The notes beneath the pieces are model-generated. The model saw only the letters and a program-made list of their open reading frames with translations. It made no database searches and had not been told where the DNA came from. Below, piece by piece: positions 19,918 through 55,123 of a stretch of 64,000 nucleotides of DNA. A program made the position numbers and the translations under genes. This stretch comes from a phage, in the NCBI GenBank assembly GCA_024683775.1, contig GCA_024683775.1_4106.1; one strand, 5' to 3'. Position 1 is the stretch's first letter, and each line of letters opens with the position of its first letter.

Positions 19918-21045
19918 TCAAAAAGGTAAATCAATTTGCTTAGTAATAATAGTATCTAACGGTATTGAACACAATGAGAAATTCTTTCCACCCGTATTTT
20001 CAGGATTATATCCATTCATCCATACATTATTACCTTCGTAAAATGTATTCCAGTATAAAGACCCACTATATCGTGTATTCGAATTGAACGATGTAAAATT
20101 GAATTCTTGAAATGCTGTAAAATATGGAAGGGAACTTGAACTACTTCCCGTAAATGGGGTATGCCCAGTTGCTATTAGTTTGTTTGTATCTGCATTAATT
20201 AAAAATACAACACTAGTCGAATAGTCCAACGAATCAGGATGATATATATTACTCATATCACCTATAGTAAAACCAACATCAAAAACTTTACTATGTGCAC
20301 CACTACCAGCAAAAGTAGTTCCAGTTGCATATATTTTATTATCAGATGTTATCATTACAAAACCAACACCAGAAACAAAACTGCATTTTATATCATAAGA
20401 TATATCATCAAACAACGGAACAAATGTGGTTGCATCACCCGATGTTGCTTTAACTTGAAAGCTGTTATTTGAACCTGAACCATATACAGTTCCATCGTTT
20501 TTAATCTTAAACAATGTATCGCCAAGGTAACCGCCAAATATATTATCCACATTAGTGTCAAGTACAGTCCACGCTGAAACATAATTTTTATGTCCTAAAC
20601 CTAATGTACCACTTCGATTCCATCCTCTTCCATAAAGTGTTCCGTCTTTCATTAATATAAATGCTGTATAACCACATAACATTTTTTTAATTTGGGTAAC
20701 ATCTATACCAGTGAAATACACAGCCCAGTCAGTATATCCTTGTTGGAAAGTATTAGAATTCGTGAATGCATATGTTGAACCTGAACCATATATTTTATCA
20801 CCTTTAATAACAACGGAAAACGATCCTAACCATAAGTCATCAACTTCAGTTGTGATTTGTTGAACTGCTCCTAACGATACAAACTGTGTACTTAAACCCG
20901 CATTATAGTTTGAATCTTCACCGTGTGCATATACAGTGCCATCTTGCATTAGAAACATTTCAAGAGTGTAACTAACAACACTTTTCTTTATATTATTAAC
21001 TTCGATTATATTCCCATAATCAAACATTCTAACAAAAGGTAACAT
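19918..21045 (-). CDS. RCC1-like beta-propeller repeat protein, array member 16
   Basis: 375-aa ORF; N-term MLPFVRMFDYGN. Confidence 0.85.
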   Translation of the reverse strand: MLPFVRMFDYGNIIEVNNIKKSVVSYTLEMFLMQDGTVYAHGEDSNYNAGLSTQFVSLGAVQQITTEVDDLWLGSFSVVIKGDKIYGSGSTYAFTNSNTFQQGYTDWAVYFTGIDVTQIKKMLCGYTAFILMKDGTLYGRGWNRSGTLGLGHKNYVSAWTVLDTNVDNIFGGYLGDTLFKIKNDGTVYGSGSNNSFQVKATSGDATTFVPLFDDISYDIKCSFVSGVGFVMITSDNKIYATGTTFAGSGAHSKVFDVGFTIGDMSNIYHPDSLDYSTSVVFLINADTNKLIATGHTPFTGSSSSSLPYFTAFQEFNFTSFNSNTRYSGSLYWNTFYEGNNVWMNGYNPENTGGKNFSLCSIPLDTIITKQIDLPF

Positions 21046-21087
21046 AATTCCCTCCTTTATTCATTATACTATATTTAATCAAAAAAA

Positions 21088-21106
21088 GCCAGTATCAAGT
21101 ACTGGC
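21088..21106. terminator. hairpin terminator (array cassette)
   Basis: GCCAGTATCAAGTACTGGC. Confidence 0.55.
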
Positions 21107-21114
21107 ATATTAAT

Positions 21115-22263
21115 TTACTGCACAAATGACATATCGACTTCGGTATAATTAAGAACGTTCTGTCCAGCACTACCACCCATTACTACAAATGAAGCACCCG
21201 AATAATATAACTTCGAAGTGTCAGTAAGTATAAGTGAACCAGATGGAGTGCGTACCAAATTACACGAAGTATTAAACGAAGTATATGAAGGAGTATAGGA
21301 GTACTGATTATTATTATTACCAACACCTAATTGCCCAAACCTATTCGATCCAGAAGCATATAGAACTTCATCTGCTTTGACAATATGTGATGCCATGTTA
21401 CCAACACAAGTATATAGAGTATAAACTCCTGAACTCAATAATGTCGGAGTTTTATATTGTATATCAGTAGAAGAGGAAGTACCACCTGTACCAAATTCGT
21501 TCCCATATTGTGCACCGAACTGTTTACCACAAGCGTACAAATTATTATCCGATTTGATAAAAAATGTACTCTGATAACTTACATTAAAATCTATAACATC
21601 CGAAGAAATCATCGTCACCCCAGTAATAGAAGTTTGATTGCCCGTGCCCAACTGGTAGTAATAGTTAAAACCACAACCCCATAAAGTATTATCTTCTCGC
21701 AAATAAATGTTACCAACAGCCTTTTTAACCGAAGTTATAGTATCTACTCTTTTGAATGTGTTAAAAGAATTAATGTTTGTGCCATCACCAAATGATGATA
21801 TGTTCGATATATTGTTAGCTCCACAACAATACAATGTACCATCGTTTGTTATCAAATTCACCTTCATATCATAAAAACTACTCATGTATTTTATATCAGA
21901 AACATTAATACCACTTGATGTTATCCACGTAGTACAGTCCGTCCACAAAGTTTTTCTATCAGTTACACCAGTGAATGCCTTCGTGTTACCAGTGATAAAA
22001 ACTTTTCCAGTACCTTTCTCTTCATACAATTGACAATCACTACTGTTATCTTCCAATAGAACTCGTTTAACATTCTCCGCACAAAGAATAAATTTACTCG
22101 ATGCTACACCTGTACCAGTACCCCAATTCGTCGCAGAAGATGCATACAACTTGTCAGTATAAGTATCATGAAGATACATAGAATCACTGGAATATATTTT
22201 ATAACGACCAGAGTTGGTAGGAGCTTCATTTCCATAATCAAACATTCTTACAAAAGGTAACAT
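21115..22263 (-). CDS. RCC1-like beta-propeller repeat protein, array member 17
   Basis: Start at conserved MLPFVRMFDYGN (22263), SD GGGAGGGAAT; repeats YYQLGTGNQ. Confidence 0.85.
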   Translation of the reverse strand: MLPFVRMFDYGNEAPTNSGRYKIYSSDSMYLHDTYTDKLYASSATNWGTGTGVASSKFILCAENVKRVLLEDNSSDCQLYEEKGTGKVFITGNTKAFTGVTDRKTLWTDCTTWITSSGINVSDIKYMSSFYDMKVNLITNDGTLYCCGANNISNISSFGDGTNINSFNTFKRVDTITSVKKAVGNIYLREDNTLWGCGFNYYYQLGTGNQTSITGVTMISSDVIDFNVSYQSTFFIKSDNNLYACGKQFGAQYGNEFGTGGTSSSTDIQYKTPTLLSSGVYTLYTCVGNMASHIVKADEVLYASGSNRFGQLGVGNNNNQYSYTPSYTSFNTSCNLVRTPSGSLILTDTSKLYYSGASFVVMGGSAGQNVLNYTEVDMSFVQ

Positions 22264-22307
22264 ATTCCCTCCCTTATTCATTATACTATATTTAATCAAA
22301 AAGAAAA

Positions 22308-22326
22308 GCCAGTACTCAAGTACTGG
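22308..22326. terminator. hairpin terminator (array cassette)
   Basis: GCCAGTACTCAAGTACTGGC. Confidence 0.55.
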
Positions 22327-22333
22327 CCTGTAT

Positions 22334-28372: not shown

Positions 28373-28497
28373 TTCAACATATAGACAGGGGAAGCTCCGC
28401 AGGGAAAGCATTGGACAGGCTTTAACAATTAGAAGAATTGTTAAAATTCAGCCTGGACAAATGCGATCACTAGGATTCTCCCCAGGCTAAACCCCGT

Positions 28498-28570
28498 AAT
28501 CATATGTAGTCATAAGTAATCATATATAAACATTTAAGTAATCATTTATAATCACTACTGTGATTAGTAT
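28498..28570. repeat. iteron-like short direct repeats (GTAATCAT units)
   Basis: AAGTAATCAT repeated at least 3 times within ~60 bp, in a region with no ORFs. Confidence 0.4.
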
Positions 28571-29399
28571 TGAGTACTAGAGTGTAATAGAGTACAGGAA
28601 TGTGCTCGTTTAATCAAGAACGTAGCAGTACTGCCCCAAAAGTATTCAGTACTGAAGGTGTCGATATGCCACTAAGTAGGCAGAGGAAGTCTGCCGTACT
28701 TTGTAGTTTCCAAGCTCCTTTTCCATTTTGCAAATTACATCAAATGTAATCAAAAGTAATCACGCAATGATTAGTACTGAATTATTACTTTCACCTTAAT
28801 TTCAATTACCCTTTTACCCTTCGGGGTAAAATTCAATTACCCCTTGAGGCTCCAGCAAAAAGTTGGTTAGTACTCCATCCTAAATCTCGATCCTAAAAAT
28901 TTTGGAGTACCTATGAAATAAAAGTTGGATCTTCGAAAGTTGAAATTTACGTTGGGACGTTTATGATTTGTGGGATATAATGATGTTTGTAGTCGGGTAG
29001 TTCTCAAGAATATCAGTACTGAATGGTGAAAGAAAGTTATTGACATTATGATTCAGTACTGTATAATGTTCTACATAGGGTGATGAGTTGCTGCGAACAA
29101 TTCATTTACTCTACCTCCTGTCGTGAGACAGTACAGAAAAGATAGTTCCTCCTGTGGTGGTACATCTTTTTGAACCTCATATGAAAATCGTAATAACAGT
29201 ACTGATATTAACAGAATGGTATCAGTACTGATTTTAATCTAAAGCATTATGCCACCAGCACAAGCTGGTGGATTCCCTCTAACAGTATTCAGTACTACAT
29301 GATAGTCTTCATCCTCCTAGGGTAACATAGTGAGGGCTATGATGGCAGTACTGAATACTCCCTTTCAAAAGATAGATCTATGGTATAGTACTGACGGAT

Positions 29400-29590
29400 T
29401 TTGGGTGTAGTTACCCTGGATGGATTTTGGGCGTAGATATGTCTAGCCCTCCAGAAGTCTGGAAGTAAAGATGGCTATCCATCTAGACGGCTAAACGGCT
29501 AGATTTCTGGATGGCTGGATGGCTAGACGTTTGGACGGCTAAACTGCTAGATGGTTACACGTCTGGAAGTATAGACGGCTAAATCAAAAT
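29400..29590. repeat. cluster of short direct repeats (GGATTTTGGG[TC]GTAG; ACGGCTAAA; GGCTAGA; TCTGGAAGTA)
   Basis: Multiple 7-15 bp units repeated 2-4 times each; non-coding context. Confidence 0.5.
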
Positions 29591-30201
29591 TTTATTTTGT
29601 TTTTTCCAATAGTTCCCCTACCGCGTGGGGATAGTTTCCCCGCAGTATCTGGCGTTAGATTTTTCTGAATCTGGAATCATTATCTTATAAACTGGGGGCA
29701 ATGTCAACGACCTGGACGGATATTTTTAAAAATTTTTTCAGTACTGAATTTTGGGCGTAACTATGCACCCGGTGGGCTTGAGTCTTTCTCGACTTGATGG
29801 AACTATTATACAGTACTGAAAAAATAAAGCAATACCCTGGAAGCAAAAAAGTTTTAATTAATTTGCTTGCTATCCTGGGCCGGACTATGGTACTATATTT
29901 CAGTACTGAGAAAGTGCGTTTACCTGCTAGGGTGCGGGAGTGTATCCTTTTTTTATATCTTGAATTTTGGGCGGATCTTCCCACCCCCTGGGGTATCCGC
30001 TTTCTCGCGTCTATGTAGTAATTATACGCTTTTTCAGGATCAAGTCAATACCTAAAAACAAAATAATTGAAAATAATTTAACGCGTTTAAACGGCCTGTA
30101 AAGCCCTGGAATGATTGGAATGGTGCAAATGTATAGCTTATGTGTATTAATGCGTTAGAATGCGTCTGAGGCCGTTTTACGGGGTATAGGGATGATTTAG
30201 T

Positions 30202-30355
30202 GGATTGATTCAGTACTGAATAATAGTACTCCTATATAGAAAGATAGTTCCCCTGGATTGATTCAGTACTGAATAATAGTACTCCTATATAGAAAGATAG
30301 TTCCCCTGGATTGATTCAGTACTGAATAATAGTTCCCCTATATAGAAAGAAAACT
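30202..30355. repeat. three tandem direct repeats of 53 bp
   Basis: Unit GGATTGATTCAGTACTGAATAATAGTACTCCTATATAGAAAGATAGTTCCCCT at 30202, 30255 and (degenerate) 30308. Confidence 0.8.
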
Positions 30356-30381
30356 ATTTTAAAAGTATTTGTAGAAAGTAC

Positions 30382-30409
30382 TTGCACCGTACTGATAAAA
30401 GCGTATAAT
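30382..30409 (+). promoter_or_regulatory. early promoter (conserved type)
   Basis: AGTACTTGCAC -35-like (TTGCAC 30382-87), 16-bp spacer, TATAAT 30404-09, then GTTTTACATC start region. Confidence 0.65.
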
Positions 30410-33828: not shown

Positions 33829-33860
33829 CGCGGGGAGATAATAACTCCCCGTTACTTTTT
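33829..33860 (+). terminator. rho-independent terminator
   Basis: CGGGGAG-ATAATAA-CTCCCCG stem-loop followed by TTACTTTTT. Confidence 0.6.
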
Positions 33861-38384: not shown

Positions 38385-38420
38385 AAAGTGGTTGACTCCG
38401 GTCAGCCATTTTGCTATTAT
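38385..38420 (+). terminator. conserved hairpin of the recurrent intergenic module (copy 1)
   Basis: Near-palindrome GTGGTTGACTCCGGTCAGCCAT followed by TTTGCTATTATAT. Confidence 0.5.
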
Positions 38421-42018: not shown

Positions 42019-42030
42019 AAATAATTGAAA

Positions 42031-42056
42031 AAGGGATTGACTCCGGTCAGTCCCTT
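42031..42056 (+). terminator. conserved hairpin of the recurrent intergenic module (copy 2)
   Basis: AAGGGATTGACTCCGGTCAGTCCCTT near-palindrome followed by TGCTATTATATA. Confidence 0.5.
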
Positions 42057-42343
42057 TGCTATTATATACGCATAGAAACAAATTAGCCCACCGGGTGCAT
42101 AAATGTATCTATTGTTTGCTGGTGGCTAGTACTATCAAGTACTGAAAACTATTTTTAAAAAAGTACTTGCAAAGTATCACGATAAGCGTATAATGTTTTA
42201 CATCAGGACGGGGAACGAAATAAGTAACCCCGTTAAGTAGTCCAGGAGTAAGACATACGAAAAACTCCCCTGATAAAATAGTTTGACAATAGAAAGTAAA
42301 CGAGTATAATACTTACATCAACCACTGATAAGGAAACATTAAA

Positions 42344-45312: not shown

Positions 45313-45340
45313 AAAGGGATTGACTCCGGTCAGTCCCTTT
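45313..45340 (+). terminator. conserved hairpin of the recurrent intergenic module (copy 3)
   Basis: AAGGGATTGACTCCGGTCAGTCCCTTT then GCTATTATATAT. Confidence 0.5.
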
Positions 45341-48071: not shown

Positions 48072-48098
48072 AAAAGGGATTGACTCCGGTCAGTCCTT
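48072..48098 (+). terminator. conserved hairpin of the recurrent intergenic module (copy 4)
   Basis: AAGGGATTGACTCCGGTCAGTCCTTTT then GCTATTATATA. Confidence 0.5.
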
Positions 48099-48302
48099 TT
48101 GCTATTATATACGCATAGACAAAAACTAGCCCACAGGGTGCATAGGTGTATCCAAAATATATAGTTAATAACGGTGAGTAACTATCTGCTGGTGGAACTA
48201 AAACTATTAATAAAAAAGTATTGACAAAGTATATCAGTACTGCAATAATGTATCTCGTAGGGCGGCAATGGTGCGACGGCCCACAAAGTTAGGAGATTCA
48301 AA

Positions 48303-49148: not shown

Positions 49149-49168
49149 TAGGCCGCTCTCTAGCGGCC
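49149..49168 (+). other. GC-rich hairpin (possible terminator or processing site)
   Basis: AGGCCGCT-CTCT-AGCGGCCT perfect 8-bp stem; no T-run after it. Confidence 0.4.
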
Positions 49169-49193
49169 TTAACTATATCAGGAGTACATACAC

Positions 49194-49403
49194 ATGATCT
49201 ATACAGTATATAGCGTTCTAGGCACTATTGCAGGCGTACATGATAACGTCGATGGTGCTATGCGTACAGTACTGCAACAGGTTCCACTAAAGCCTAAGAC
49301 CATTAAGCAGATGACAGCACGACTAACCAGGGCGACGGCTGGCGTGGAAGTATGGCAGGACTATGGGGATACACAGATAATCGTAAGCGTAACGAAGGAT
49401 TAA
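49194..49403 (+). CDS. hypothetical protein (69 aa)
   Basis: ORF with SD AGGAG. Confidence 0.6.
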   Translation: MIYTVYSVLGTIAGVHDNVDGAMRTVLQQVPLKPKTIKQMTARLTRATAGVEVWQDYGDTQIIVSVTKD

Positions 49404-49432
49404 TGCGTAAAAGGATTTAGTACTGAATCATA

Positions 49433-49512
49433 AAAAAGTCAAGGCATTTTTAAACTTCAGCGTTAAAAAAATGCATAGGTAATCCCTTGACTTTTATGAA
49501 TAAAAAGGGATT
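49433..49512. other. nested inverted-repeat element at the boundary of the early region and the LGTNYQ array
   Basis: AAAAGTCAAGG (49433-44) pairs with CCTTGACTTTT (49485-95); inner GCATTTTTA/TAAAAATGC; adjacent AATCCCTT..AAGGGATT (49481-49512). Confidence 0.5.
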
Positions 49513-49652
49513 GGACTATGGCAAAATGCGTAGGGGGCTAAAGGGCGGGTAACCTTAGCGACTTCGATAAAGGGGTATTACTTATAAAATGTTATTGACT
49601 TTTTATATGAATCGTATATTATTGGATTGATATTATTTTTAATGGAGTCCCT

Positions 49653-49850
49653 ATGCGTATTTTAACTCAAGAAGAGCACAACCACACACTCATATCCAAC
49701 ATGGCATATATCCTACATATGTCACATATCCGTGGTATTGCATATAAGCGTGAATTGGTTATGAAACTTTTCATAGGAACTAACTATCAAGAAAAGTATA
49801 TCGAACTATACTTACAAGAATTACGAAGGGACATAAAAGGTAGACTATGA
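49653..49850 (+). CDS. LGTNYQ-family small protein, member 1
   Basis: 65-aa ORF; SD GGAG; core FIGTNYQEKY. Confidence 0.65.
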   Translation: MRILTQEEHNHTLISNMAYILHMSHIRGIAYKRELVMKLFIGTNYQEKYIELYLQELRRDIKGRL

Positions 49851-50047
49851 AAATGCGTATTTTAAATAAAGAAGATTATCAAGAACTGTTACGTAAAAAC
49901 ATGGTAAAGATTTATAACACAGACACAAACTTAGAACGAATTGAGTTATACCTTTTGATTACATTGGGAACAAGCTATCAGGGAAGATGGGTGATTCAAT
50001 ATATGGATGCATTGAAAAATGAAATATTATCCACGAGGAAACAATGA
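49847..50047 (+). CDS. LGTNYQ-family small protein, member 2
   Basis: ATGA overlap with previous stop; core LGTSYQGRW. Confidence 0.65.
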   Translation: MKMRILNKEDYQELLRKNMVKIYNTDTNLERIELYLLITLGTSYQGRWVIQYMDALKNEILSTRKQ

Positions 50048-50253
50048 AAACTATAACACGAACCCAATCATACGGTCTTATCTTGAGATACATGGACTTA
50101 ATGTTGGATATCAGAAAAGACCTTCCTAAAACTGCAATTGAAGTTGCAAGAGCAGAGATCCGCATGTTGGCTGTACTGAACACAAACCATCAGGAAGAGT
50201 ATGTTGACGATTGGATTCGATTTTTAATAGAAGATATTAAGAGGAAACTATGA
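50044..50253 (+). CDS. LGTNYQ-family small protein, member 3
   Basis: ATGA overlap; core VLNTNHQEEY. Confidence 0.65.
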   Translation: MKTITRTQSYGLILRYMDLMLDIRKDLPKTAIEVARAEIRMLAVLNTNHQEEYVDDWIRFLIEDIKRKL

Positions 50254-50462
50254 TTTTTTTAACACCAGAAGAATATAAGATACGTTTTGTTTCTGTCCAG
50301 AATAAAATCTTAATTATATACAATTCAAATGCAGACCTTAACTTATCAAGGGTATTAGAAAAAGATTTACTTATGGGTGCATTTTTGGATACAGACTTTC
50401 AGGTGTATTATGTAGGGGAATACTTAATTGCACTCCAGAATTACATTAAGAGTAAACTATGA
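50250..50462 (+). CDS. LGTNYQ-family small protein, member 4
   Basis: ATGA overlap; core FLDTDFQVYY; C-term ALQNYIKSKL. Confidence 0.65.
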   Translation: MIFLTPEEYKIRFVSVQNKILIIYNSNADLNLSRVLEKDLLMGAFLDTDFQVYYVGEYLIALQNYIKSKL

Positions 50463-50671
50463 ATAGCATTAACTCAAATCTATATACCGAACGCGTCGCT
50501 GCAAGACAACTTGAAATTCTCATAGTATATGAAGAGACTGATGATTTGAACTTAGCATTAGTATTGGAAAATGATATACTATTGGGTGCATTCCTCGGCA
50601 CAGATTATCAGGAGCACTTCTTGAATGAGTATATAATTGCACTCCAGAAATACATTAAGAGCAAACTATGA
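50459..50671 (+). CDS. LGTNYQ-family small protein, member 5
   Basis: ATGA overlap; core FLGTDYQEHF; close paralog of member 4. Confidence 0.65.
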   Translation: MNSINSNLYTERVAARQLEILIVYEETDDLNLALVLENDILLGAFLGTDYQEHFLNEYIIALQKYIKSKL

Positions 50672-50886
50672 AACATTTAAGTAATTCCGAGAAGAATAAA
50701 ATTATCATTGCTGCAATAAACAAATATTTTACACTTCCTCACACAGAAGGTTTATGTGTAAGGGAACACAGGATAAACACCACCGATATACGCATGATGG
50801 CTGTACTGGGGACGAACTTTCAGGAAGAGTATGTTGTTGCACACATAGTTGCCCTCACTGATCTAATAAGGGACAAATGTAAATGA
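50668..50886 (+). CDS. LGTNYQ-family small protein, member 6
   Basis: ATGA overlap; core VLGTNFQEEY. Confidence 0.65.
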   Translation: MKHLSNSEKNKIIIAAINKYFTLPHTEGLCVREHRINTTDIRMMAVLGTNFQEEYVVAHIVALTDLIRDKCK

Positions 50887-51140
50887 AACACTTAACACTA
50901 GATGAATATGAAACTATAGTCCGTAAACTAACCCCTATAGCAAGGATAGTCTACGATGACCCCAGCCTTACATGGAACCAAATGCGAGCTAAAGTTAATG
51001 AGCTATGGTTGCTGTACTTTATGGGGACTCAATATCAAGATAAGTTTTGCACAGAATATGTCGAACAATTAATGAATGTTATACAGGATAAACTAGATGA
51101 TTATTGGCTCACAAAACATGAAGACTTTATCAGGAGTTGA
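50883..51140 (+). CDS. LGTNYQ-family small protein, member 7
   Basis: ATGA overlap; core FMGTQYQDKF. Confidence 0.6.
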   Translation: MKHLTLDEYETIVRKLTPIARIVYDDPSLTWNQMRAKVNELWLLYFMGTQYQDKFCTEYVEQLMNVIQDKLDDYWLTKHEDFIRS

Positions 51141-51369
51141 GTATCAAACTGCCCTATTCTCTTTAATCCATACCCTTAGAAAAAACAATGCCTTACATGG
51201 TGCACCTGAAGTGGATGTTATCAACGGTGAACTTTATCTTATGAAATTCATTGGAACAAACTATCAAGATCTGTTCATTCAACGATACTTATCAGCATTA
51301 AGAAACCAAATCCAATATAAAACCATCAAGGCCAAAAAAGAATGGAATAAACAATGCGACACAGACTAA
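51118..51369 (+). CDS. LGTNYQ-family small protein, member 8
   Basis: Start chosen at ATG 51118 (tracked ORF starts 51097); core FIGTNYQDLF. Confidence 0.6.
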   Translation: MKTLSGVEYQTALFSLIHTLRKNNALHGAPEVDVINGELYLMKFIGTNYQDLFIQRYLSALRNQIQYKTIKAKKEWNKQCDTD

Positions 51370-51605
51370 ATCACAAAATGTATTGTAAACTATTACAGAC
51401 ACTGGCACAGAAACACTATGACACGGTATCTGGAATATTACCCTATGATATCATGCGTTTACTTCACTGTGAGGCCGAGATGCTTGTACTGATGACAGGC
51501 ACTGATAAAAAAGCAATTGTCAAATCAATAGATATGTTCATCGAAGCACAATGTCAACACATTAGAACCGAGATATGGAGGCGAGAGAATGATAACCCTA
51601 AATGA
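51354..51605 (+). CDS. LGTNYQ-family small protein, member 9 (divergent core LMTGTDKK)
   Basis: ORF in array; start uncertain. Confidence 0.5.
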   Translation: MRHRLNHKMYCKLLQTLAQKHYDTVSGILPYDIMRLLHCEAEMLVLMTGTDKKAIVKSIDMFIEAQCQHIRTEIWRRENDNPK

Positions 51606-51804
51606 GTTTCAGTATCATTGGAGATTACAAGCTATAAGAAGGAAAGTTGTTAGTATTTCTTTAGACAAGTCTATTGCACAAGAGGACAAATGTGTTATAA
51701 TAGCTGAAATGAAGTTGGGTGCTTTCGTAGGGACAAACTATCAAAACATCTACACTGACGTATTGTTAAGTGCCTTACGTAACAAGGTGATATCAAAAGA
51801 ATGA
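51589..51804 (+). CDS. LGTNYQ-family small protein, member 10
   Basis: core FVGTNYQNIY. Confidence 0.65.
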   Translation: MITLNEFQYHWRLQAIRRKVVSISLDKSIAQEDKCVIIAEMKLGAFVGTNYQNIYTDVLLSALRNKVISKE

Positions 51805-52019
51805 GAAAATTACAAGGCTTTGAATACATCAGACTCCTGAAAACATGCACCAGCAGAAGGAAAATCTTATCAAGCAACAAGAGCATCCCTGCCAACCTAA
51901 AACATGCAATGATAGCTGAACTCTATGTAGAAGCACTCATAGGGACAAACTATCAACAAATGTATATAGACATGTGGGTTGATGCATTAGTCAAGGAGAT
52001 CAAAAGTAAATGCAAATGA
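51801..52019 (+). CDS. LGTNYQ-family small protein, member 11
   Basis: ATGA overlap; core LIGTNYQQMY. Confidence 0.65.
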   Translation: MRKLQGFEYIRLLKTCTSRRKILSSNKSIPANLKHAMIAELYVEALIGTNYQQMYIDMWVDALVKEIKSKCK

Positions 52020-52228
52020 TTAATTTAAGTAAAGATGAATATTATGATCGTCTTGCAAAAACTTATCCAGCACGTAACGCCGTTTATAATAGTAACATTA
52101 TTGAACGCTCAAAGAAGTTGATTGTAGTAAATGAGATTAAGATGCTTTCAGTCTTAGGAACAAACTATCAAGAGAATGCTGTACTGTTGTTAATTGATGC
52201 CCTCAAGAGAGAGATACAAAGTAAATGA
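52010..52228 (+). CDS. LGTNYQ-family small protein, member 12
   Basis: core VLGTNYQENA. Confidence 0.65.
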   Translation: MQMINLSKDEYYDRLAKTYPARNAVYNSNIIERSKKLIVVNEIKMLSVLGTNYQENAVLLLIDALKREIQSK

Positions 52229-52461
52229 TTCATTTATCTTACCATGATTATCAAAAACGTTTAAATGCATCAAGGGATATAAGGATTCAAATCTTCAATA
52301 ACAAAAAATTGAAACCTGATAACAGAAGAATCAAAATGATAGAAGCAGAGTTATGCAACTTCCTGGGGACGAACTATCAGGCAGGTAAGGTAAAAAACTA
52401 TCTTAGAGAACTAATGAATTGTATCGAAAATAAATGCGATGCTTTGGAGAATAAAAAATGA
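52225..52461 (+). CDS. LGTNYQ-family small protein, member 13
   Basis: ATGA overlap; core FLGTNYQAGK. Confidence 0.65.
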   Translation: MIHLSYHDYQKRLNASRDIRIQIFNNKKLKPDNRRIKMIEAELCNFLGTNYQAGKVKNYLRELMNCIENKCDALENKK

Positions 52462-52715
52462 TCAATTTAAGTAAAGATGAATATACCGAGCGTATGACAA
52501 AAATTACACACAAACGTAATACAATCTATCACAACCAAAAAATTCAACACAGTAAGAAAATGATTATGATGCGTGAGTTAAAGATGGGTGTATTCTTGGG
52601 AACAAACTATCAAGAGCCAGAAGTAAATCGATTAATTGATGAGTTACTATTGGAAATCAAAGGTAAGCTGTACTTTTATCAAATGACCCGTCCACTAAGG
52701 TGTACTGATCGATGA
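52458..52715 (+). CDS. LGTNYQ-family small protein, member 14
   Basis: ATGA overlap; core FLGTNYQEPE; N-term MINLSKDEY like member 12. Confidence 0.65.
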   Translation: MINLSKDEYTERMTKITHKRNTIYHNQKIQHSKKMIMMRELKMGVFLGTNYQEPEVNRLIDELLLEIKGKLYFYQMTRPLRCTDR

Positions 52716-52954
52716 ATATTGTGAATAACATCAGATTAGCAGAAAGATTTGATAGAATTGGGGAAGCTATGAGAAGATACGATAAAGAATATGGTCATTT
52801 AAGCTTTACGATAGAAAAGAGATATGAACTTGAAGCAGAGTTTAAAATGCAGTTCCTTTTAGGTACACAGTATCAAAACCAATATGTAGAAAAATGGATT
52901 TCACTTTTAATCCAGACAATTTACGTAAGGAACATTAAATGCAAAATGAAATGA
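52712..52954 (+). CDS. LGTNYQ-family small protein, member 15
   Basis: ATGA overlap; core LLGTQYQNQY. Confidence 0.65.
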   Translation: MNIVNNIRLAERFDRIGEAMRRYDKEYGHLSFTIEKRYELEAEFKMQFLLGTQYQNQYVEKWISLLIQTIYVRNIKCKMK

Positions 52955-53175
52955 TATACTTAACACATGATGAGTTAACAGAAAGACTAGATAAATCCAA
53001 AAAACTTACAAAATATCTTCCACACAACCCAAACCAAACCCCAGCAGAAAGGAGTGCAGAAGTTTTATTCCAAACATTACCATACCTTCTTGGAACTGAT
53101 AGGCAAGAGTATCATATTGAACGTATAATTAAATATCTCAAAATTACTATTATGGAAAAAGTAAATGCAAAGTGA
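52939..53175 (+). CDS. LGTNYQ-family small protein, member 16
   Basis: core LLGTDRQEYH; N-term MQNEMIYLTHDEL. Confidence 0.6.
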   Translation: MQNEMIYLTHDELTERLDKSKKLTKYLPHNPNQTPAERSAEVLFQTLPYLLGTDRQEYHIERIIKYLKITIMEKVNAK

Positions 53176-53395
53176 AATGATATACTTAACGAATGAAGAA
53201 TTTCAAGAGAAGATGTTAAAAGCCAATAACATTACTCTTAAGTTCGTTCCAAATCAATCAATATATGAAATGTCTGCGAATGTATTGTTTCAGAAGCTAC
53301 CATACGTTCTTGGAACTGATAAACAAGAATTTATGGTTCAAAATATGATTGAACATCTTGTAATGAGTATTAAGGAAAAAGTAAATGCAAAATGA
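53165..53395 (+). CDS. LGTNYQ-family small protein, member 17
   Basis: core VLGTDKQEFM; N-term MQSEMIYLTNEEF; start could be the second ATG (53177). Confidence 0.6.
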   Translation: MQSEMIYLTNEEFQEKMLKANNITLKFVPNQSIYEMSANVLFQKLPYVLGTDKQEFMVQNMIEHLVMSIKEKVNAK

Positions 53396-53642
53396 AATGA
53401 AATACTTAACAGACGATGAGTTAAAAGAACGATTAATTAAATCCAGAAAACTTACAAATCAACTTCCAAACGACACAAACAAGTCACCTGCCGAAAGGAG
53501 TGCAGAAGTTTTATACATTCAACTCATGTACTTTCTTGGAACTGACAGACAAGAGTATTACATTGAAAGTATGCTTCGATATCTTAAATTCTCTATAAAG
53601 GAAAAGATACATGCTCAAGAATTTAAAAATCCTAACAGTTAA
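53385..53642 (+). CDS. LGTNYQ-family small protein, member 18
   Basis: core FLGTDRQEYY; paralog of member 16. Confidence 0.6.
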   Translation: MQNEMKYLTDDELKERLIKSRKLTNQLPNDTNKSPAERSAEVLYIQLMYFLGTDRQEYYIESMLRYLKFSIKEKIHAQEFKNPNS

Positions 53643-53868
53643 TGAATATCATAAGATTGTAATGAAAACTAATAGTGCAATTTCTAAAAAATCAAACCCA
53701 AAGTACATACTGGAACACACATTTGAAGAACGTCAATTAGCTTTAGTTGAAGCAAAACTTCTTGCACTCCTAGGAACAAACTATCAGGAAGAATACATCA
53801 GAAAACTAATATACCTTTTAACTAAACACATCAGGAAAAGAAAAAAGCATGAAGCACTTGACAGATGA
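53611..53868 (+). CDS. LGTNYQ-family small protein, member 19
   Basis: core LLGTNYQEEY. Confidence 0.6.
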   Translation: MLKNLKILTVNEYHKIVMKTNSAISKKSNPKYILEHTFEERQLALVEAKLLALLGTNYQEEYIRKLIYLLTKHIRKRKKHEALDR

Positions 53869-54079
53869 TGAACATGGGCTTATAGTAATGGATGTAATCA
53901 ACATCGAATACAAAAAGTTGATACGCTACCGTTGTTATGAAGATAAGCAACTCGTTCTAGCAGAACAGAAGTTGTTTCGACTCTTAAACACAAACTTCCA
54001 AGCACAATACGAAGAATCGTATATGTACCTTTTGGCGAGGAAAGCAAAAAGAGATTATGAAAATTTTAAGCCACAGTGA
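53849..54079 (+). CDS. LGTNYQ-family small protein, member 20
   Basis: core LLNTNFQAQY. Confidence 0.6.
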   Translation: MKHLTDDEHGLIVMDVINIEYKKLIRYRCYEDKQLVLAEQKLFRLLNTNFQAQYEESYMYLLARKAKRDYENFKPQ

Positions 54080-54272
54080 ACAAACAGAATTGTTAATCTT
54101 TAATACAAGTAAATTCTTAAACATAACATTGTCTGATATAGATGAGGATGAAAAAGAGTTACTTAGAGCAGATTTAAGAGTTCTTTTATATATTGGAACT
54201 AACTTCCAAGAGCAATTCGTTGAGGACTACATCGATGAACTTAAAGAATCTGTACTGAGAACATGCAAATGA
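54057..54272 (+). CDS. LGTNYQ-family small protein, member 21
   Basis: core YIGTNFQEQF. Confidence 0.6.
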   Translation: MKILSHSEQTELLIFNTSKFLNITLSDIDEDEKELLRADLRVLLYIGTNFQEQFVEDYIDELKESVLRTCK

Positions 54273-54911: not shown

Positions 54912-55123
54912 AGGAAATATCAAATCAAGAGTACTTGGCACTATTCAGGAAGAATAATCACAAATATATGGCACTTGATTCAAGAACTGATATAAGTGAA
55001 CTTCAGAAAAATCTTTTGCGTTCAGAGATGATAGTACTGACACTCTTAGGAACACAGCATCAAGAGAGAACTGTTAATTCACACATAGAGATTCTTATGC
55101 AGATAGTACAGGAAAAGATATGA
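54908..55123 (+). CDS. LGTNYQ-family small protein, member 25
   Basis: ATGA overlap; core LLGTQHQERT. Confidence 0.65.
   Translation: MKEISNQEYLALFRKNNHKYMALDSRTDISELQKNLLRSEMIVLTLLGTQHQERTVNSHIEILMQIVQEKI

Follow-up and report, generated by a model that had tools for sequence, protein, structure and literature searches.

A nested inverted repeat separates the last early gene from the LGTNYQ array

The DNA analysed here is a stretch of 64,000 nucleotides (NCBI GenBank assembly GCA_024683775.1, contig GCA_024683775.1_4106.1; hereafter the window), which is from Asteriusvirus, a jumbo coliphage of the 121Q/PBECO4 type. At the locus under study, a module of early genes ends with a small gene that is followed by a nested inverted repeat, a conserved non-coding element and the promoter of the LGTNYQ array (Table 1). 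The direct terminal repeat (DTR) that closes at this locus harbours many small early genes, each placed behind a strong host-type promoter, in a cassette of ~50 early genes. Pfam and PHROG searches assigned the neighbouring genes exclusively to families of unknown function.

Table 1. Features at the right end of the terminal repeat and at its left boundary (window coordinates; ^ marks the cut)
Feature	Position	Strand	Remarks
Left DTR boundary	28668..28676	-	CT^TAGTGGC, inverted counterpart of the right cut motif; repeat starts at 28675
Last DTR gene	49194..49403	+	69 aa, phrog_17833; syntenic with the terminus in all genera examined
Outer left arm TCATAAAAAAGTCAAGG	49428..49444	+	Perfect core 49434-49444; carries the inverted GTCAA half-site
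Inner imperfect palindrome	49444..49474	+	GCATTTTT 49444-49451 / AAAAATGC 49467-49474; 15-nt loop
Right arm with 5' flank AGGTAATCCCTTGACTTTT	49477..49495	+	First conserved block of the terminal element
Second inverted repeat AATCCCTT / AAGGGATT	49481..49512	+	Overlaps the right arm
Conserved block GATTGGACTATG	49509..49520	+	Ends 35 nt before the cut; unique in the window
Terminus-bearing segment AAAATGCGTAGGGGGCTAAAGGGCGGGTAACCT^TAGCGACTT	49523..49564	+	Gapped direct repeat of 49468-49493 (AAAATGCATAGGTAATCCCTTGACTT)
Right-end cut motif CT^TAGCGAC	49554..49562	+	Mature DNA ends after 49555
LGTNYQ array promoter, sigma-70 type	49595..49622	+	TTGACT-16-TATTAT; third TTGACTTTT copy; outside the DTR

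The first-pass annotation had described two overlapping pairs of inverted repeats with an inner palindrome and TTGAC half-sites, and this architecture largely held up. Reading of the sequence places the outer arms within ±1 nt of the original proposal, with AAAAGTCAAGG at 49434-49444 facing CCTTGACTTTT at 49485-49495; the left arm was thought to start at 49433, and the extra A indeed continues the run, but it is unpaired in this genome. A repeat search delimits arms of 15 nt (49434-49448 and 49481-49495) that are 93% complementary with 32 nt between them, and the predicted fold lengthens the stem to TCATAAA(AA)AGTCAAGG paired with CCTTGACT-TTTATGA, that is 49428-49444 with 49485-49499. The adjacent pair, formed by 49481-49488 and 49505-49512, is likewise present; its pairing competes with the outer stem, and its occurrence is confined to the main Asteriusvirus lineage. 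Of the inner palindrome, GCATTTTTA is found as the left half at 49444-49452, but the exact 9-mer TAAAAATGC is absent, as T is followed by A7 and then by TGC; the palindrome is thus an imperfect one with abundant A and T runs in its spacer. The TTGAC half-sites are indeed present. The longer word TTGACTTTT occurs only three times in the 64 kb, each time inside one 170-bp stretch, although the count as such is not unusual (21/100 shuffles). Copies 2 and 3 share a similar spacer, TTGACTTTT(TAT)ATGAAT.

The nested inverted repeat is real and non-random. A 96-nt RNA folds with -21.2 kcal/mol as compared to -12.0±2.7 for shuffled sequences (z -3.5; 1/200 shuffles as good); the minus strand (z -3.4) and single-stranded DNA (z -4.4) behave similarly. 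In a context of 149 nt the RNA value weakens to z -1.5 because alternative pairings compete. Counting inverted repeats whose perfect arms measure 11 nt or more and lie no further than 60 nt apart gives 16 for the window vs 1.6±1.1 for dinucleotide shuffles, a ~10-fold excess. Extrusion of a cruciform from duplex DNA is unlikely given the 40-nt spacer.

Among the TTGACT copies, only the one at 49595 qualifies as part of a sigma-70 promoter, which is kept across Asteriusvirus and deleted in the Salmonella SD phages. The copy at 49487(+) has no -10 hexamer at 16-18 bp, the nearest candidate being GACTAT, 21 bp off, and the copy at 49442(-) faces TAAATC, in which the final T is missing. The minus-strand copy resembles the early promoter at 29040 (TTGAC.TT..ATGATTCAGTACT), but the likeness stops before the -10 region. 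Two further candidates were rejected. A small peptide, MNKKGLDYGKMRRGLKGG (49496-49552), lacks its start codon in the E9.1-type sequence and is thus not conserved, and a MITE-like insertion with flanking direct repeats of the AAAGGATT type was discarded as these repeats do not abut the arms.

The repeat is situated just within the right end of virion DNA

The boundary between the early module and the array, as it had been called, is genuine: it is the inner edge of the DTR, which spans window positions 28675-49555 (20,881 bp, ~20.9 kb). Mature DNA ends after 49555, that is 60 nt past the right arm, and this base represents both the physical right end of virion DNA and the inner DTR boundary. 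Eight independent Asteriusvirus records in GenBank end at the homologous base, although such record termini come from PhageTerm or coverage calls, which makes a systematic offset of a few nt possible. Six of them (vB_Ec-M-J, fEgEco12, E9.1, CRJP21, BF17 and G17) all end at ...GGGCGGGTAACCT, and WPEC3 and WPEC5 show the same 152-nt offset between the stop codon of the last gene and the record end that is found throughout the eight. The DTR annotated for vB_Ec-M-J (1..21525) ends at the homologue of 49555, and the first 29 nt of this record match window positions 28675-28703 exactly. For fEgEco12, termini called by PhageTerm delimit a repeat of 20,993 bp with which restriction digests are concordant (PMC13070987), and this is the exact value predicted from our alignment. 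Coverage of G17 indicated a redundancy of ~20 kb. The homologous ends of fENko-Kae01, Hallingskeid and Kaldavass fall on the same base. The whole nested repeat sits 43-127 bases inside the right end of the chromosome.

At the left boundary the cut motif is found again in opposite orientation, and CTTAGYGRC has just these two matches in the window, at 49554(+) and 28668(-). Similarly, the junctions of fENko-Kae01 and BF read GCTA^ on the left and ^TAGC on the right. The segment that bears the terminus is moreover related to DNA within the nested repeat: its alignment with 49468-49493 reaches a Smith-Waterman score of 22.5, which was attained by 0/2000 shuffles and 10/2548 other windows, and AATGCRTAGG is found in the window only at 49470 and 49525. 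No second copy of the conserved right-arm block is present near the left boundary, where the likeness is confined to the cut motif. Hence, the block is not the sole recognition signal for both cuts.

The right arm belongs to an element kept in fixed register with the cut

The alignments show that AGGTAATCCCTTGACTTTT, GATTGGACTATG and the cut region TAAAGG..GTAAC-CT^TAGC form one non-coding element of ~80 bp. Twelve lineages from about five genera have preserved both its sequence and its spacing to the cut, and they can be stacked without gaps to give a consensus from -80 to the cut; the records of Hallingskeid and Kaldavass stop at the homologous base of this stack. The block AGGTAATCCCTTGACTTTT is unique in the window even when three mismatches are allowed. 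Erwinia phage Kaldavass and Xanthomonas phage XbC2 share it without any change, and fENko-Kae01, Hallingskeid, BF and EJP2 have a near-identical copy; in each case the distance to the cut is the same. The TTGAC of the right arm starts at -68 in the window and at -69 in fENko-Kae01. Likewise, in the window, JNE01 and fENko-Kae01 the end of GGACTATG lies at -35, and this motif is kept in most lineages.

This conservation exceeds that of the surrounding coding DNA. When fENko-Kae01 DNA including the neighbouring gene served as query, Eneladusvirus matched only over the non-coding stretch of ~100 nt that precedes the terminus (79-80% identity), and the neighbouring protein is only 35-40% identical across the genera that keep the element. 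Within closer relatives, the 271-nt intergenic region is 100% identical as compared to 95.9% for the surrounding 1.5 kb in Ecwhy_1, with corresponding values of 94.5% vs 90.5% in E9.1 and 91.5% vs 86.8% in 121Q. The gene downstream of the DTR varies among genera while the element stays. A scan of IMG/VR for TTGACTTTT-N(10-30)-GGACTATG returned 89 loci, nearly all of which are chance matches or unrelated promoter families (match lengths 36 and 27 nt); only three Eneladusvirus-like contigs and 121Q were gained.

The upstream part of the repeat is more variable. Most genera possess an upstream TTGAC/GTCAA site; there are one or two further upstream TTGAC sites and two to three TTGAC/GTCAA sites per lineage in total. 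Depending on the lineage, there is an inverted partner at -49, -44 or -28, a direct one at -28, or none. In the present genome it is inverted at -49, which results in a hairpin-capable repeat. The left arm is invariant within the main Asteriusvirus lineage and otherwise placed or oriented in other genera. In JNE01/Turkey5 it has been replaced and ACCTTAGCG occupies the position of the right arm; at almost the same site, JNE01 carries a nested repeat that is different but comparable in size, and fENko-Kae01 has four 15-mer repeats. As JNE01/Turkey5 and EJP2 lack the inverted partner, the hairpin as such is dispensable or replaceable.

A candidate recognition site for the terminus-generating machinery

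Like cos- and pac-type sites, the element adjoins a mature DNA end, is conserved as non-coding DNA in fixed register with the cut and contains repeated motifs. Since the right arm belongs to the ~80-base element kept across jumbo-phage genera, the repeat is more likely part of a site for DNA-end recognition and packaging than a plain transcription terminator. More specifically, the repeat may represent a cluster of binding sites for the terminus-generating (terminase) machinery, possibly with weak termination as a side effect; judged by position and conservation, from which any functional assignment of the element is drawn, we consider this proposal evenly poised between right and wrong.

According to this proposal, the nested repeat would be the upstream part of a cis-acting DNA element located just inside the right chromosome end. 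Its TTGAC-containing repeats would be putative sites for the machinery that recognizes and cuts concatemers, i.e. the small terminase subunit or an accessory protein, and the spacer with its A and T runs may allow these sites to be bound together. The nuclease would thereby be positioned about 68 bp downstream at CT^TAGC, and the same nuclease may act in opposite orientation at the left boundary. Hairpin potential would be secondary, even though partial termination, or a stable 3' end of early transcripts leaving the DTR, is still possible. Upstream sites whose sequence persists while orientation and spacing shift are more readily understood as binding sites than as parts of an obligatory hairpin. 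The hairpin itself is probably incidental; it is the right-arm sequence that matters. A fixed helical phase of the half-sites initially seemed suggestive, as the spacings in the window (49 bp) and in fENko-Kae01 (28 bp) are two turns apart, but it was refuted by the 44 bp of Hallingskeid and Kaldavass and by the direct copies at -28; the spacings -28, -44 and -49 have no common helical phase.

Alternative functions of the repeat

The first-pass annotation had offered a strong terminator, a regulatory switch and an origin-like structure as possible functions. The first of these finds no support in its strong form, as the stem is AT-rich, surrounds 40 nt and was missed by a terminator scan. That the repeat serves as a Rho-independent terminator or as a hairpin stabilizing RNA 3' ends, and in this way insulates the early DTR genes from the LGTNYQ array, is nonetheless a possibility to be taken seriously, albeit not the one we would expect to prevail. 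The repeat starts 25 nt after the last DTR gene, the plus-strand RNA folds well (-21 kcal/mol, z -3.5), and an A-run, a stem and a U-run follow one another; in the E9.1/121Q/PBECO4 type, perfect arms of 13 bp are followed by U6. Kaldavass and XbC2 even carry a tighter GTCAAC-9-GTTGAC-TTTT hairpin at the equivalent place, and the array is served by a conserved promoter of its own, 100 nt downstream.

However, the stem core has only four G-C pairs and encloses 40 nt, unlike the GC-rich stem and 3-8-nt loop expected of a terminator, and the scan that missed it did detect GC-rich hairpins with T6-7 tails at 33830, 34948, 35679 and 43819. In the window the U-run reads UUUUAU and lies mostly within the stem, where its bases, like the U6 of the E9.1/121Q type, pair with the A-run; in JNE01/Turkey5 the repeat is followed by G7 instead. 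The stem of fENko-Kae01 is very weak (seven AT-rich pairs, 23-nt loop), while a canonical terminator is located elsewhere, just outside its DTR. Serratia phage BF and EJP2 have kept the right-arm sequence but have no comparable hairpin. In the Salmonella SD phages, which are devoid of the array promoter, the array needs read-through. Nor does termination explain why sequence is conserved at a fixed distance from the cut site.

Within Asteriusvirus, the 5' arm of the inner palindrome varies by C49445T in vB_Ec-M-J and by A49446G in the E9.1 group, neither of which is compensated. Both stem substitutions retain pairing only in plus-strand RNA (U-A to G-U and A-U to G-U), which mildly favours a role at the RNA level and counts for a terminator. 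Covariation on the predicted stem is not significant (88/500 shuffles), in a test comprising only four distinct haplotypes with one double change (U-A to G-U). Searching the whole window against Rfam 15 gave no match at the gathering score, and a permissive search returned only snoR74 (23 bits vs a gathering score of 44; E 0.22), i.e. a chance match.

An origin-like structure at the DNA level comes nearest to the evidence among the three functions originally offered, but the features of an origin are lacking: consensus DnaA boxes and IHF sites are absent, with scans for IHF, DnaA and Fis-like consensus sequences being negative, and the switch in GC skew and gene orientation as well as a large repeat-rich non-coding region are found at the left boundary (about 28.4-30.4 kb). 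Alternatively, a fold-back hairpin could prime regeneration of the DTR during concatemer processing, as proposed for T7, where an inverted repeat at the right end has reportedly been implicated in a hairpin intermediate. The AT-rich DNA, the nested repeats, the position beside the genome end and the good fold of single-stranded DNA (z -4.4) would suit a replication element of either kind. Yet priming from a hairpin situated 60-127 nt before the end would allow no more than ~100 nt to be copied and not the 21-kb DTR, and the hairpin is not conserved, which renders such a role unlikely.

Marginally less credible still is an operator or switch, in which a DNA-binding protein of the phage or the host, bound to the inverted TTGAC half-sites, controls the 49595 promoter or read-through into the array. 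This idea draws on the clustering of three TTGACTTTT copies in 170 bp, the third of which is the -35 box of the array promoter, and on the spacer likeness between copies 2 and 3. What speaks against it is a conserved block that keeps register with the DNA cut site and not with the promoter, whose distance and sequence differ among genera and which is deleted in the SD phages, as well as the retention of the element where the gene downstream of the DTR is a different one.

In a further reading, the repeat, whose position matches that of Repeat Region 3 of phage T5 (bioRxiv 10.1101/866236), would act as an injection-stop or hand-over signal that pauses DNA entry once the DTR is inside the cell. 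However, the T5-type paired DnaA boxes are missing, as TTWTNCACA does not occur on either strand in 49300-49700 and only one relaxed match was found; the element comprises about 130 bp as compared to 1.2-1.6 kb in T5, two-step transfer is not known from these myoviruses, and an element in fixed register to the cut site would be more in keeping with cutting than with stalling. We therefore consider a T5-like signal improbable, and equally improbable the wider notion that the boundary element acts in DNA entry, not (or not only) in packaging, and holds the chromosome after ~21 kb. If true, the latter would imply two-step DNA transfer via a DnaA-independent signal in the Rak2/121Q group of jumbo myoviruses.

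Just as improbable is that the repeat has no function of its own and arose from duplication and decay of promoter- or terminus-like words (TTGAC, AAGGGATT, AATGCRTAGG): although these words recur in hairpin-promoter elements at 38385, 42030, 45313 and 48073, the left arm turns over between lineages and a mosaic breakpoint lies at about 49430, the arms do not vary in any main-lineage Asteriusvirus genome, unlike the flanking genes, most genera have an upstream site, and in JNE01 another nested repeat of comparable size has evolved at almost the same site.

Comparison with known systems

As a putative recognition site for the cutting machinery, the element can be compared with cosB of phage lambda, in which the gpNu1 sites R3 and R2 are reportedly inverted around the IHF bend I1, beside cosN. 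Both have repeated sites, although here they are putative, two of which are inverted ~50 bp apart at 50-120 bp from the cleavage site, a spacer that could bend DNA, and a cleavage site with partial two-fold character. In contrast to lambda, where a single site yields 12-nt cohesive ends, two cuts 20.9 kb apart generate a long DTR, and there is neither an IHF consensus nor sequence similarity to cosB. The packaging signals at the concatemer junctions of T7 and T3, where pac sites, a hairpin intermediate and a transcription pause have been described, form a second parallel. Shared with these phages are exact direct terminal repeats with sequence-specific cuts at both boundaries, cis signals including an inverted repeat within ~200 bp of the right end, and transcription signals intermixed with packaging signals. 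On the other hand, the T7 repeat measures 160 bp as compared to about 21 kb, T7 relies on its own RNA polymerase and a class II pause site, sequence similarity is absent, and the inverted repeat described here lies inside the terminal repeat.

Repeat Region 3 of T5 is untranslated, repeat-rich and conserved, and is located where a long terminal repeat carrying the earliest genes has its inner end (bioRxiv 10.1101/866236). It resembles our locus in that nested inverted repeats and palindromes straddle the inner DTR boundary and are better conserved than neighbouring coding DNA, but its eight paired DnaA boxes have no counterpart. Similarity also exists to bidirectional intrinsic terminators, i.e. 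an A6 run, a GUCAAGG/CCUUGAC stem and a run of U4-6 right after the last gene, from which the repeat differs by the 40 nt between its arms, the low G-C content, the negative terminator scan and the lack of conservation of hairpin and U-run in relatives. Finally, the terminal redundancy of SPO1 is reportedly a host-takeover module, and the genomic context is alike, that is a long direct terminal repeat full of small early genes with strong host-type promoters; we know of no equivalent boundary element described for SPO1.

Implications for the Rak2/121Q-like jumbo phages

Exact terminal repeats of ~20 kb are now reported for several Rak2/121Q-like jumbo phages, whereas the recognition and cutting of their ends are not described in the literature that we found. 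Our analysis offers a candidate, which consists of the ~80-bp element ending in CT^TAGC, the TTGAC repeats upstream of it and the inverted cut motif at the other boundary. If correct, the ends and the DTR length of jumbo-phage assemblies that were collapsed or opened arbitrarily could be set from sequence alone. The element would further provide a handle on the site specificity acquired by a T4-related packaging motor, and it would define the cis element needed for packageable vectors.

The inverted repeat lies just inside the right end of the chromosome

The nested inverted repeat that the first-pass annotation had read from the sequence stands as an observation: its outer arms and second pair are present, and its inner palindrome exists as an imperfect pair, while the 9-mer TAAAAATGC assigned to the latter is absent because the A run consists of seven A's (see table). 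An inverted-repeat search and the predicted fold extend the arms further. Folding was compared with shuffled sequences, as the annotation had proposed, yielding -21.2 versus -12.0±2.7 kcal/mol for the plus-strand RNA (z -3.5) and z scores of -3.4 for the minus-strand RNA and -4.4 for single-stranded DNA. Perfect inverted repeats (arms of 11 nt or more, no more than 60 nt apart) occur 16 times in the window versus 1.6±1.1 times in shuffles.

The region is 87-96% identical to the Asteriusvirus jumbo coliphages Ecwhy_1, EC.P1, fEgEco12, vB_Ec-M-J, 121Q, PBECO4 and phAPEC6. In vB_Ec-M-J, "Direct Terminal Repeats" are annotated at 1..21525, the last base being homologous to window position 49555, and the records of vB_Ec-M-J, fEgEco12, E9.1, CRJP21, BF17 and G17 share the end ...GGGCGGGTAACCT, located 152 nt past the stop codon of a 69-aa gene; the offset is identical in WPEC3 and WPEC5. 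For fEgEco12, whose termini were determined by PhageTerm with restriction digests in support, the repeat length predicted by our alignment, 20,993 bp, is exactly the one published (PMC13070987). A redundancy of ~20 kb was deduced from coverage for G17 (PMC6563267). The terminal repeat of Sharanji measures 20,668 bp. With its ends placed at 28675 (left) and 49555 (right), the terminal repeat here comprises 20,881 bp. The boundary noted initially is genuine, but the "early module" on its inner side is the terminal repeat, and the nested repeat is found 43-127 nt inward of the chromosome's right physical end.

Features of the right chromosome end and its surroundings (window positions unless another stretch is named)
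Feature	Position	Sequence or description
Outer arms	49434-49444 / 49485-49495	AAAAGTCAAGG / CCTTGACTTTT
Second pair	49481-49488 / 49505-49512	AATCCCTT / AAGGGATT
Inner imperfect pair	49444-51 / 49467-74	GCATTTTT / AAAAATGC
Arms, inverted-repeat search	49434-49448 / 49481-49495	15 nt, 93%
Stem, predicted fold	49428-49444 / 49485-49499	2-nt bulge
69-aa gene	49194-49403	
Terminal repeat	28675-49555	
Internal gapped direct repeat	49468-49493	AAAATGCATAGGTAATCCCTTGACTT
Terminus segment	49523-49564	AAAATGCGTAGG, 13 nt, GGTAACCTTAGCGACTT
Inverted GTCAA, upstream of conserved block	-49; -44; -28	window; Hallingskeid, Kaldavass; fENko-Kae01
Direct TTGACTTTT, upstream of conserved block	-28	BF, pEa, IMG/VR contigs, Kaldavass, XbC2
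Canonical terminators in terminal repeat	33830, 34948, 35679, 43819	GC-rich hairpins, T6-7 tails
Terminator of fENko-Kae01	L016:549-588	CTGATATGT-7-ACATATCGG-T7
Terminator-like hairpins, e.g.	2819-2844, 12663-12688, 22305-22330	(A)ATGCCAGTACTnnAGTACTGGCAT
Four-copy 28-nt hairpin	38385-38412, 42030-42057, 45313-45340, 48073-48100	AAAGGGATTGACTCCGGTCAGTCCCTTT, 12-bp stem
GC-rich hairpin	49150-49169	AGGCCGCT-CTCT-AGCGGCCT
Left-end non-coding region	28373-30407	~2 kb
GTAATCA-type repeats	28496-28554, 28739-28762	
24-nt repeat	29482-29553	three copies
53-nt tandem repeat	30201-30350	2.8 copies, 97% identical
Left-end hairpin	28675-28695	GGCAGA-ggaag-TCTGCC
Left-end hairpin, fENko-Kae01	L017:1-23	TATCTTCT-ctgtata-AGAAGATA
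Tandem duplication, Turkey5	L011:506-665	80 bp, AAGGATTAATGCGTAAAAGGATTTAGTACTGATGCATTTT...
Deletion, SD-15_S21	49568-49646	~80 bp
LGTNYQ array	49653-54100	>20 genes

Conservation of the boundary element

Among Asteriusvirus genomes, the sequence around the intergenic region varies more than the region itself. The main lineage shows no change in either arm or anywhere in the 3' half (49460-49495), its differences being concentrated in the loop and the 5' half. Up to the end of the last repeat gene, JNE01 and Turkey5 match the window at 97-100%; from ~49435 onward identity falls to 37-60%, and over all the sequence beyond the inverted repeat, through the array, it is 10-60%. This drop marks a mosaic breakpoint at ~49430. 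Conserved islands persist inside the divergent stretch (AGGGATTGGACTATG, ATGCGTGGGGG, GGGTAACCTTAGC). Both phages lack GTCAA/TTGAC and carry their own nested repeat of similar size (ACGCAAAAAAAC / GTTTTTATGCGT, 41 nt between arms), which is followed by G7 rather than U's; the right-arm position is taken by ACCTTAGCG, a copy of the cut-site sequence. In Turkey5, the final part of the last repeat gene is duplicated in tandem together with the intergenic start. In four Salmonella SD phages, a deletion has removed the array promoter and brought the first array gene directly up against post-terminus sequence.

PhageTerm assigns a 19,736-bp repeat to the Klebsiella phage fENko-Kae01 (PMC11218385). 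Its last repeat protein is 37.5% identical, and its right boundary is recognisably the same (AAGTCAA...TTGACTTTT, arms 23 nt apart), with GATTGGACTATG ending 35 nt short of the cut, TGCCT^TAGCC. A query with this region matched Eneladusvirus (Serratia BF and six Erwinia pEa phages) only over a ~100-nt non-coding stretch (79-80%), as well as the very start of the Hallingskeid record. EJP2, Kaldavass and XbC2 were added via the neighbouring protein. Stacking the 125 nt that precede the cut in 12 lineages, without gaps, gave the consensus tAgGtaATcccTTgACTTTT.Tg...gGACTATGcaAAA...TAAAGGccgGtaAtcCT^TAGC, and the Hallingskeid and Kaldavass records stop exactly at the homologous base. The 19-mer AGGTAATCCCTTGACTTTT, that is the right arm plus flank, occurs once in the window and is identical in Kaldavass and XbC2. 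Position, conservation and a fixed register to the cut are established for the element. Upstream of the conserved block the lineages diverge, and the GTCAA/TTGAC site varies in placement and orientation, nothing obvious being found for JNE01 and EJP2.

A symmetric cut motif at both boundaries

The right boundary reads AACCT^TAGCGAC and the reverse complement of the left boundary CCTACT^TAGTGGC; CTTAGYGRC occurs in the window only at these two sites. In fENko-Kae01 and BF, the left junctions are ...CCGCTA^TATCTTCTC and the right junctions ...CT^TAGC, and therefore the repeat is bracketed by GCTA^...^TAGC in three genera. Such an inverted motif is what a single nuclease acting in opposite orientations at the two boundaries would be expected to leave. 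The combined chance of the pattern is roughly in the 10^-3 range, and the agreement is suggestive rather than proof, given how short the motif is and that the sites it describes partly served to derive it. Beside the cluster of TTGAC repeats, the element contains a gapped direct repeat of the terminus segment, whose score was reached by 0/2000 shuffles and 10/2548 other windows. In each of the two genera checked, the terminal repeat opens with a small hairpin, the sequences differing.

Termination and other readings

A primarily RNA or terminator role, one of the options raised initially, is in our view less likely than packaging recognition. In its favour, in the E9.1 type 13 perfect pairs are followed by U6, and two stem substitutions retain pairing in the plus-strand RNA only, which is not significant since there are just four haplotypes. 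However, hairpin and U-run are not conserved among relatives, and a terminator scan called canonical terminators inside the terminal repeat, leaving the nested repeat uncalled. Moreover, the SD phages lack the array promoter, so that their array needs read-through. In fENko-Kae01, a canonical terminator lies 12-50 nt outside the terminal repeat, overlapping the -35 of the next promoter; termination and boundary element are therefore physically separate there.

A replication-related element, an operator, an entry-stop signal and a repeat without function share the remaining probability. A T5-type stop signal, although analogous in position, is improbable, its defining DnaA-box pairs being absent. 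A replication origin is improbable too: a consensus scan found neither DnaA nor IHF sites at the repeat, and a skew switch with a large repeat-rich non-coding region lies at the left boundary instead. A sigma-70 promoter at the TTGACT copies of the repeat was dismissed, a -10 being present only at the 49595 copy, and Rfam revealed no known structured RNA. For each of these classes, terminators included, the element lacks at least one defining feature.

Neighbouring sequence features

The palindrome AGTACT is strongly over-represented across the terminal repeat (25-34 sites per 4 kb in window 24000-49424; 254 sites in the whole window), ending abruptly at 49419, with the next site at 54930. It forms part of early promoters, either as AAAAAGTACTTGCAA at -35 or as TTGACA-N9-AGTACTGTATAAT just 5' of -10, the latter giving a TG-extended -10. 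Terminator-like hairpins follow many minus-strand genes in window 1-23000, so the word is re-used in their stems. The left arm of the four-copy hairpin holds the -35 of a TTGACT-17-TATTAT promoter, and these copies, situated between early genes, resemble elements that combine a hairpin with a promoter (or serve RNA processing); their words AAAGGGATTG.ACT recur at 49503-49516. The GC-rich hairpin between the last two repeat genes has no plus-strand U-run and no promoter after it, and may serve processing or stability instead of termination.

The repeat-bearing non-coding region at the left terminal-repeat end, which GTAATCA-type repeats straddle, has no convincing ORF, and gene orientation and GC skew switch within it; an origin and a left-end packaging function are candidate roles for this region. 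Immediately outside the right end begins the array of tandem, mostly overlapping 65-90-aa LGTNYQ paralogues (phrog_4148, function unknown; no Pfam match), with a lower G+C (0.30-0.35 versus 0.38-0.41).

A putative terminase recognition region

Position, conservation and repeat architecture fit the general class of terminase recognition regions, to which we putatively assign the element. The explanation by packaging recognition, taken as a whole, stands in our view about evenly poised. The TTGAC-containing repeats would be bound by the small terminase subunit or by an accessory protein, with joint binding permitted by the A/T-run spacer, and the nuclease would be positioned ~68 bp downstream, at CT^TAGC; the mirror-image site at 28675 would supply the second cut needed for a 20.9-kb repeat. 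Here the upstream site happens to lie inverted, hence the hairpin-capable repeat, which may additionally provide the last early transcript with partial termination or a stable 3' end. Among the closest functional analogues are lambda cosB, in which inverted gpNu1 sites surround a bend with cosN adjacent, and the concatemer-junction signals of T7/T3; T5 Repeat Region 3 is an analogue by position. While the terminal repeats themselves are published, no description of the boundary element occurs in the papers found. The element would allow the ends to be assigned in the many collapsed jumbo-phage assemblies and would give work on site-specific packaging in these phages a well-defined substrate.
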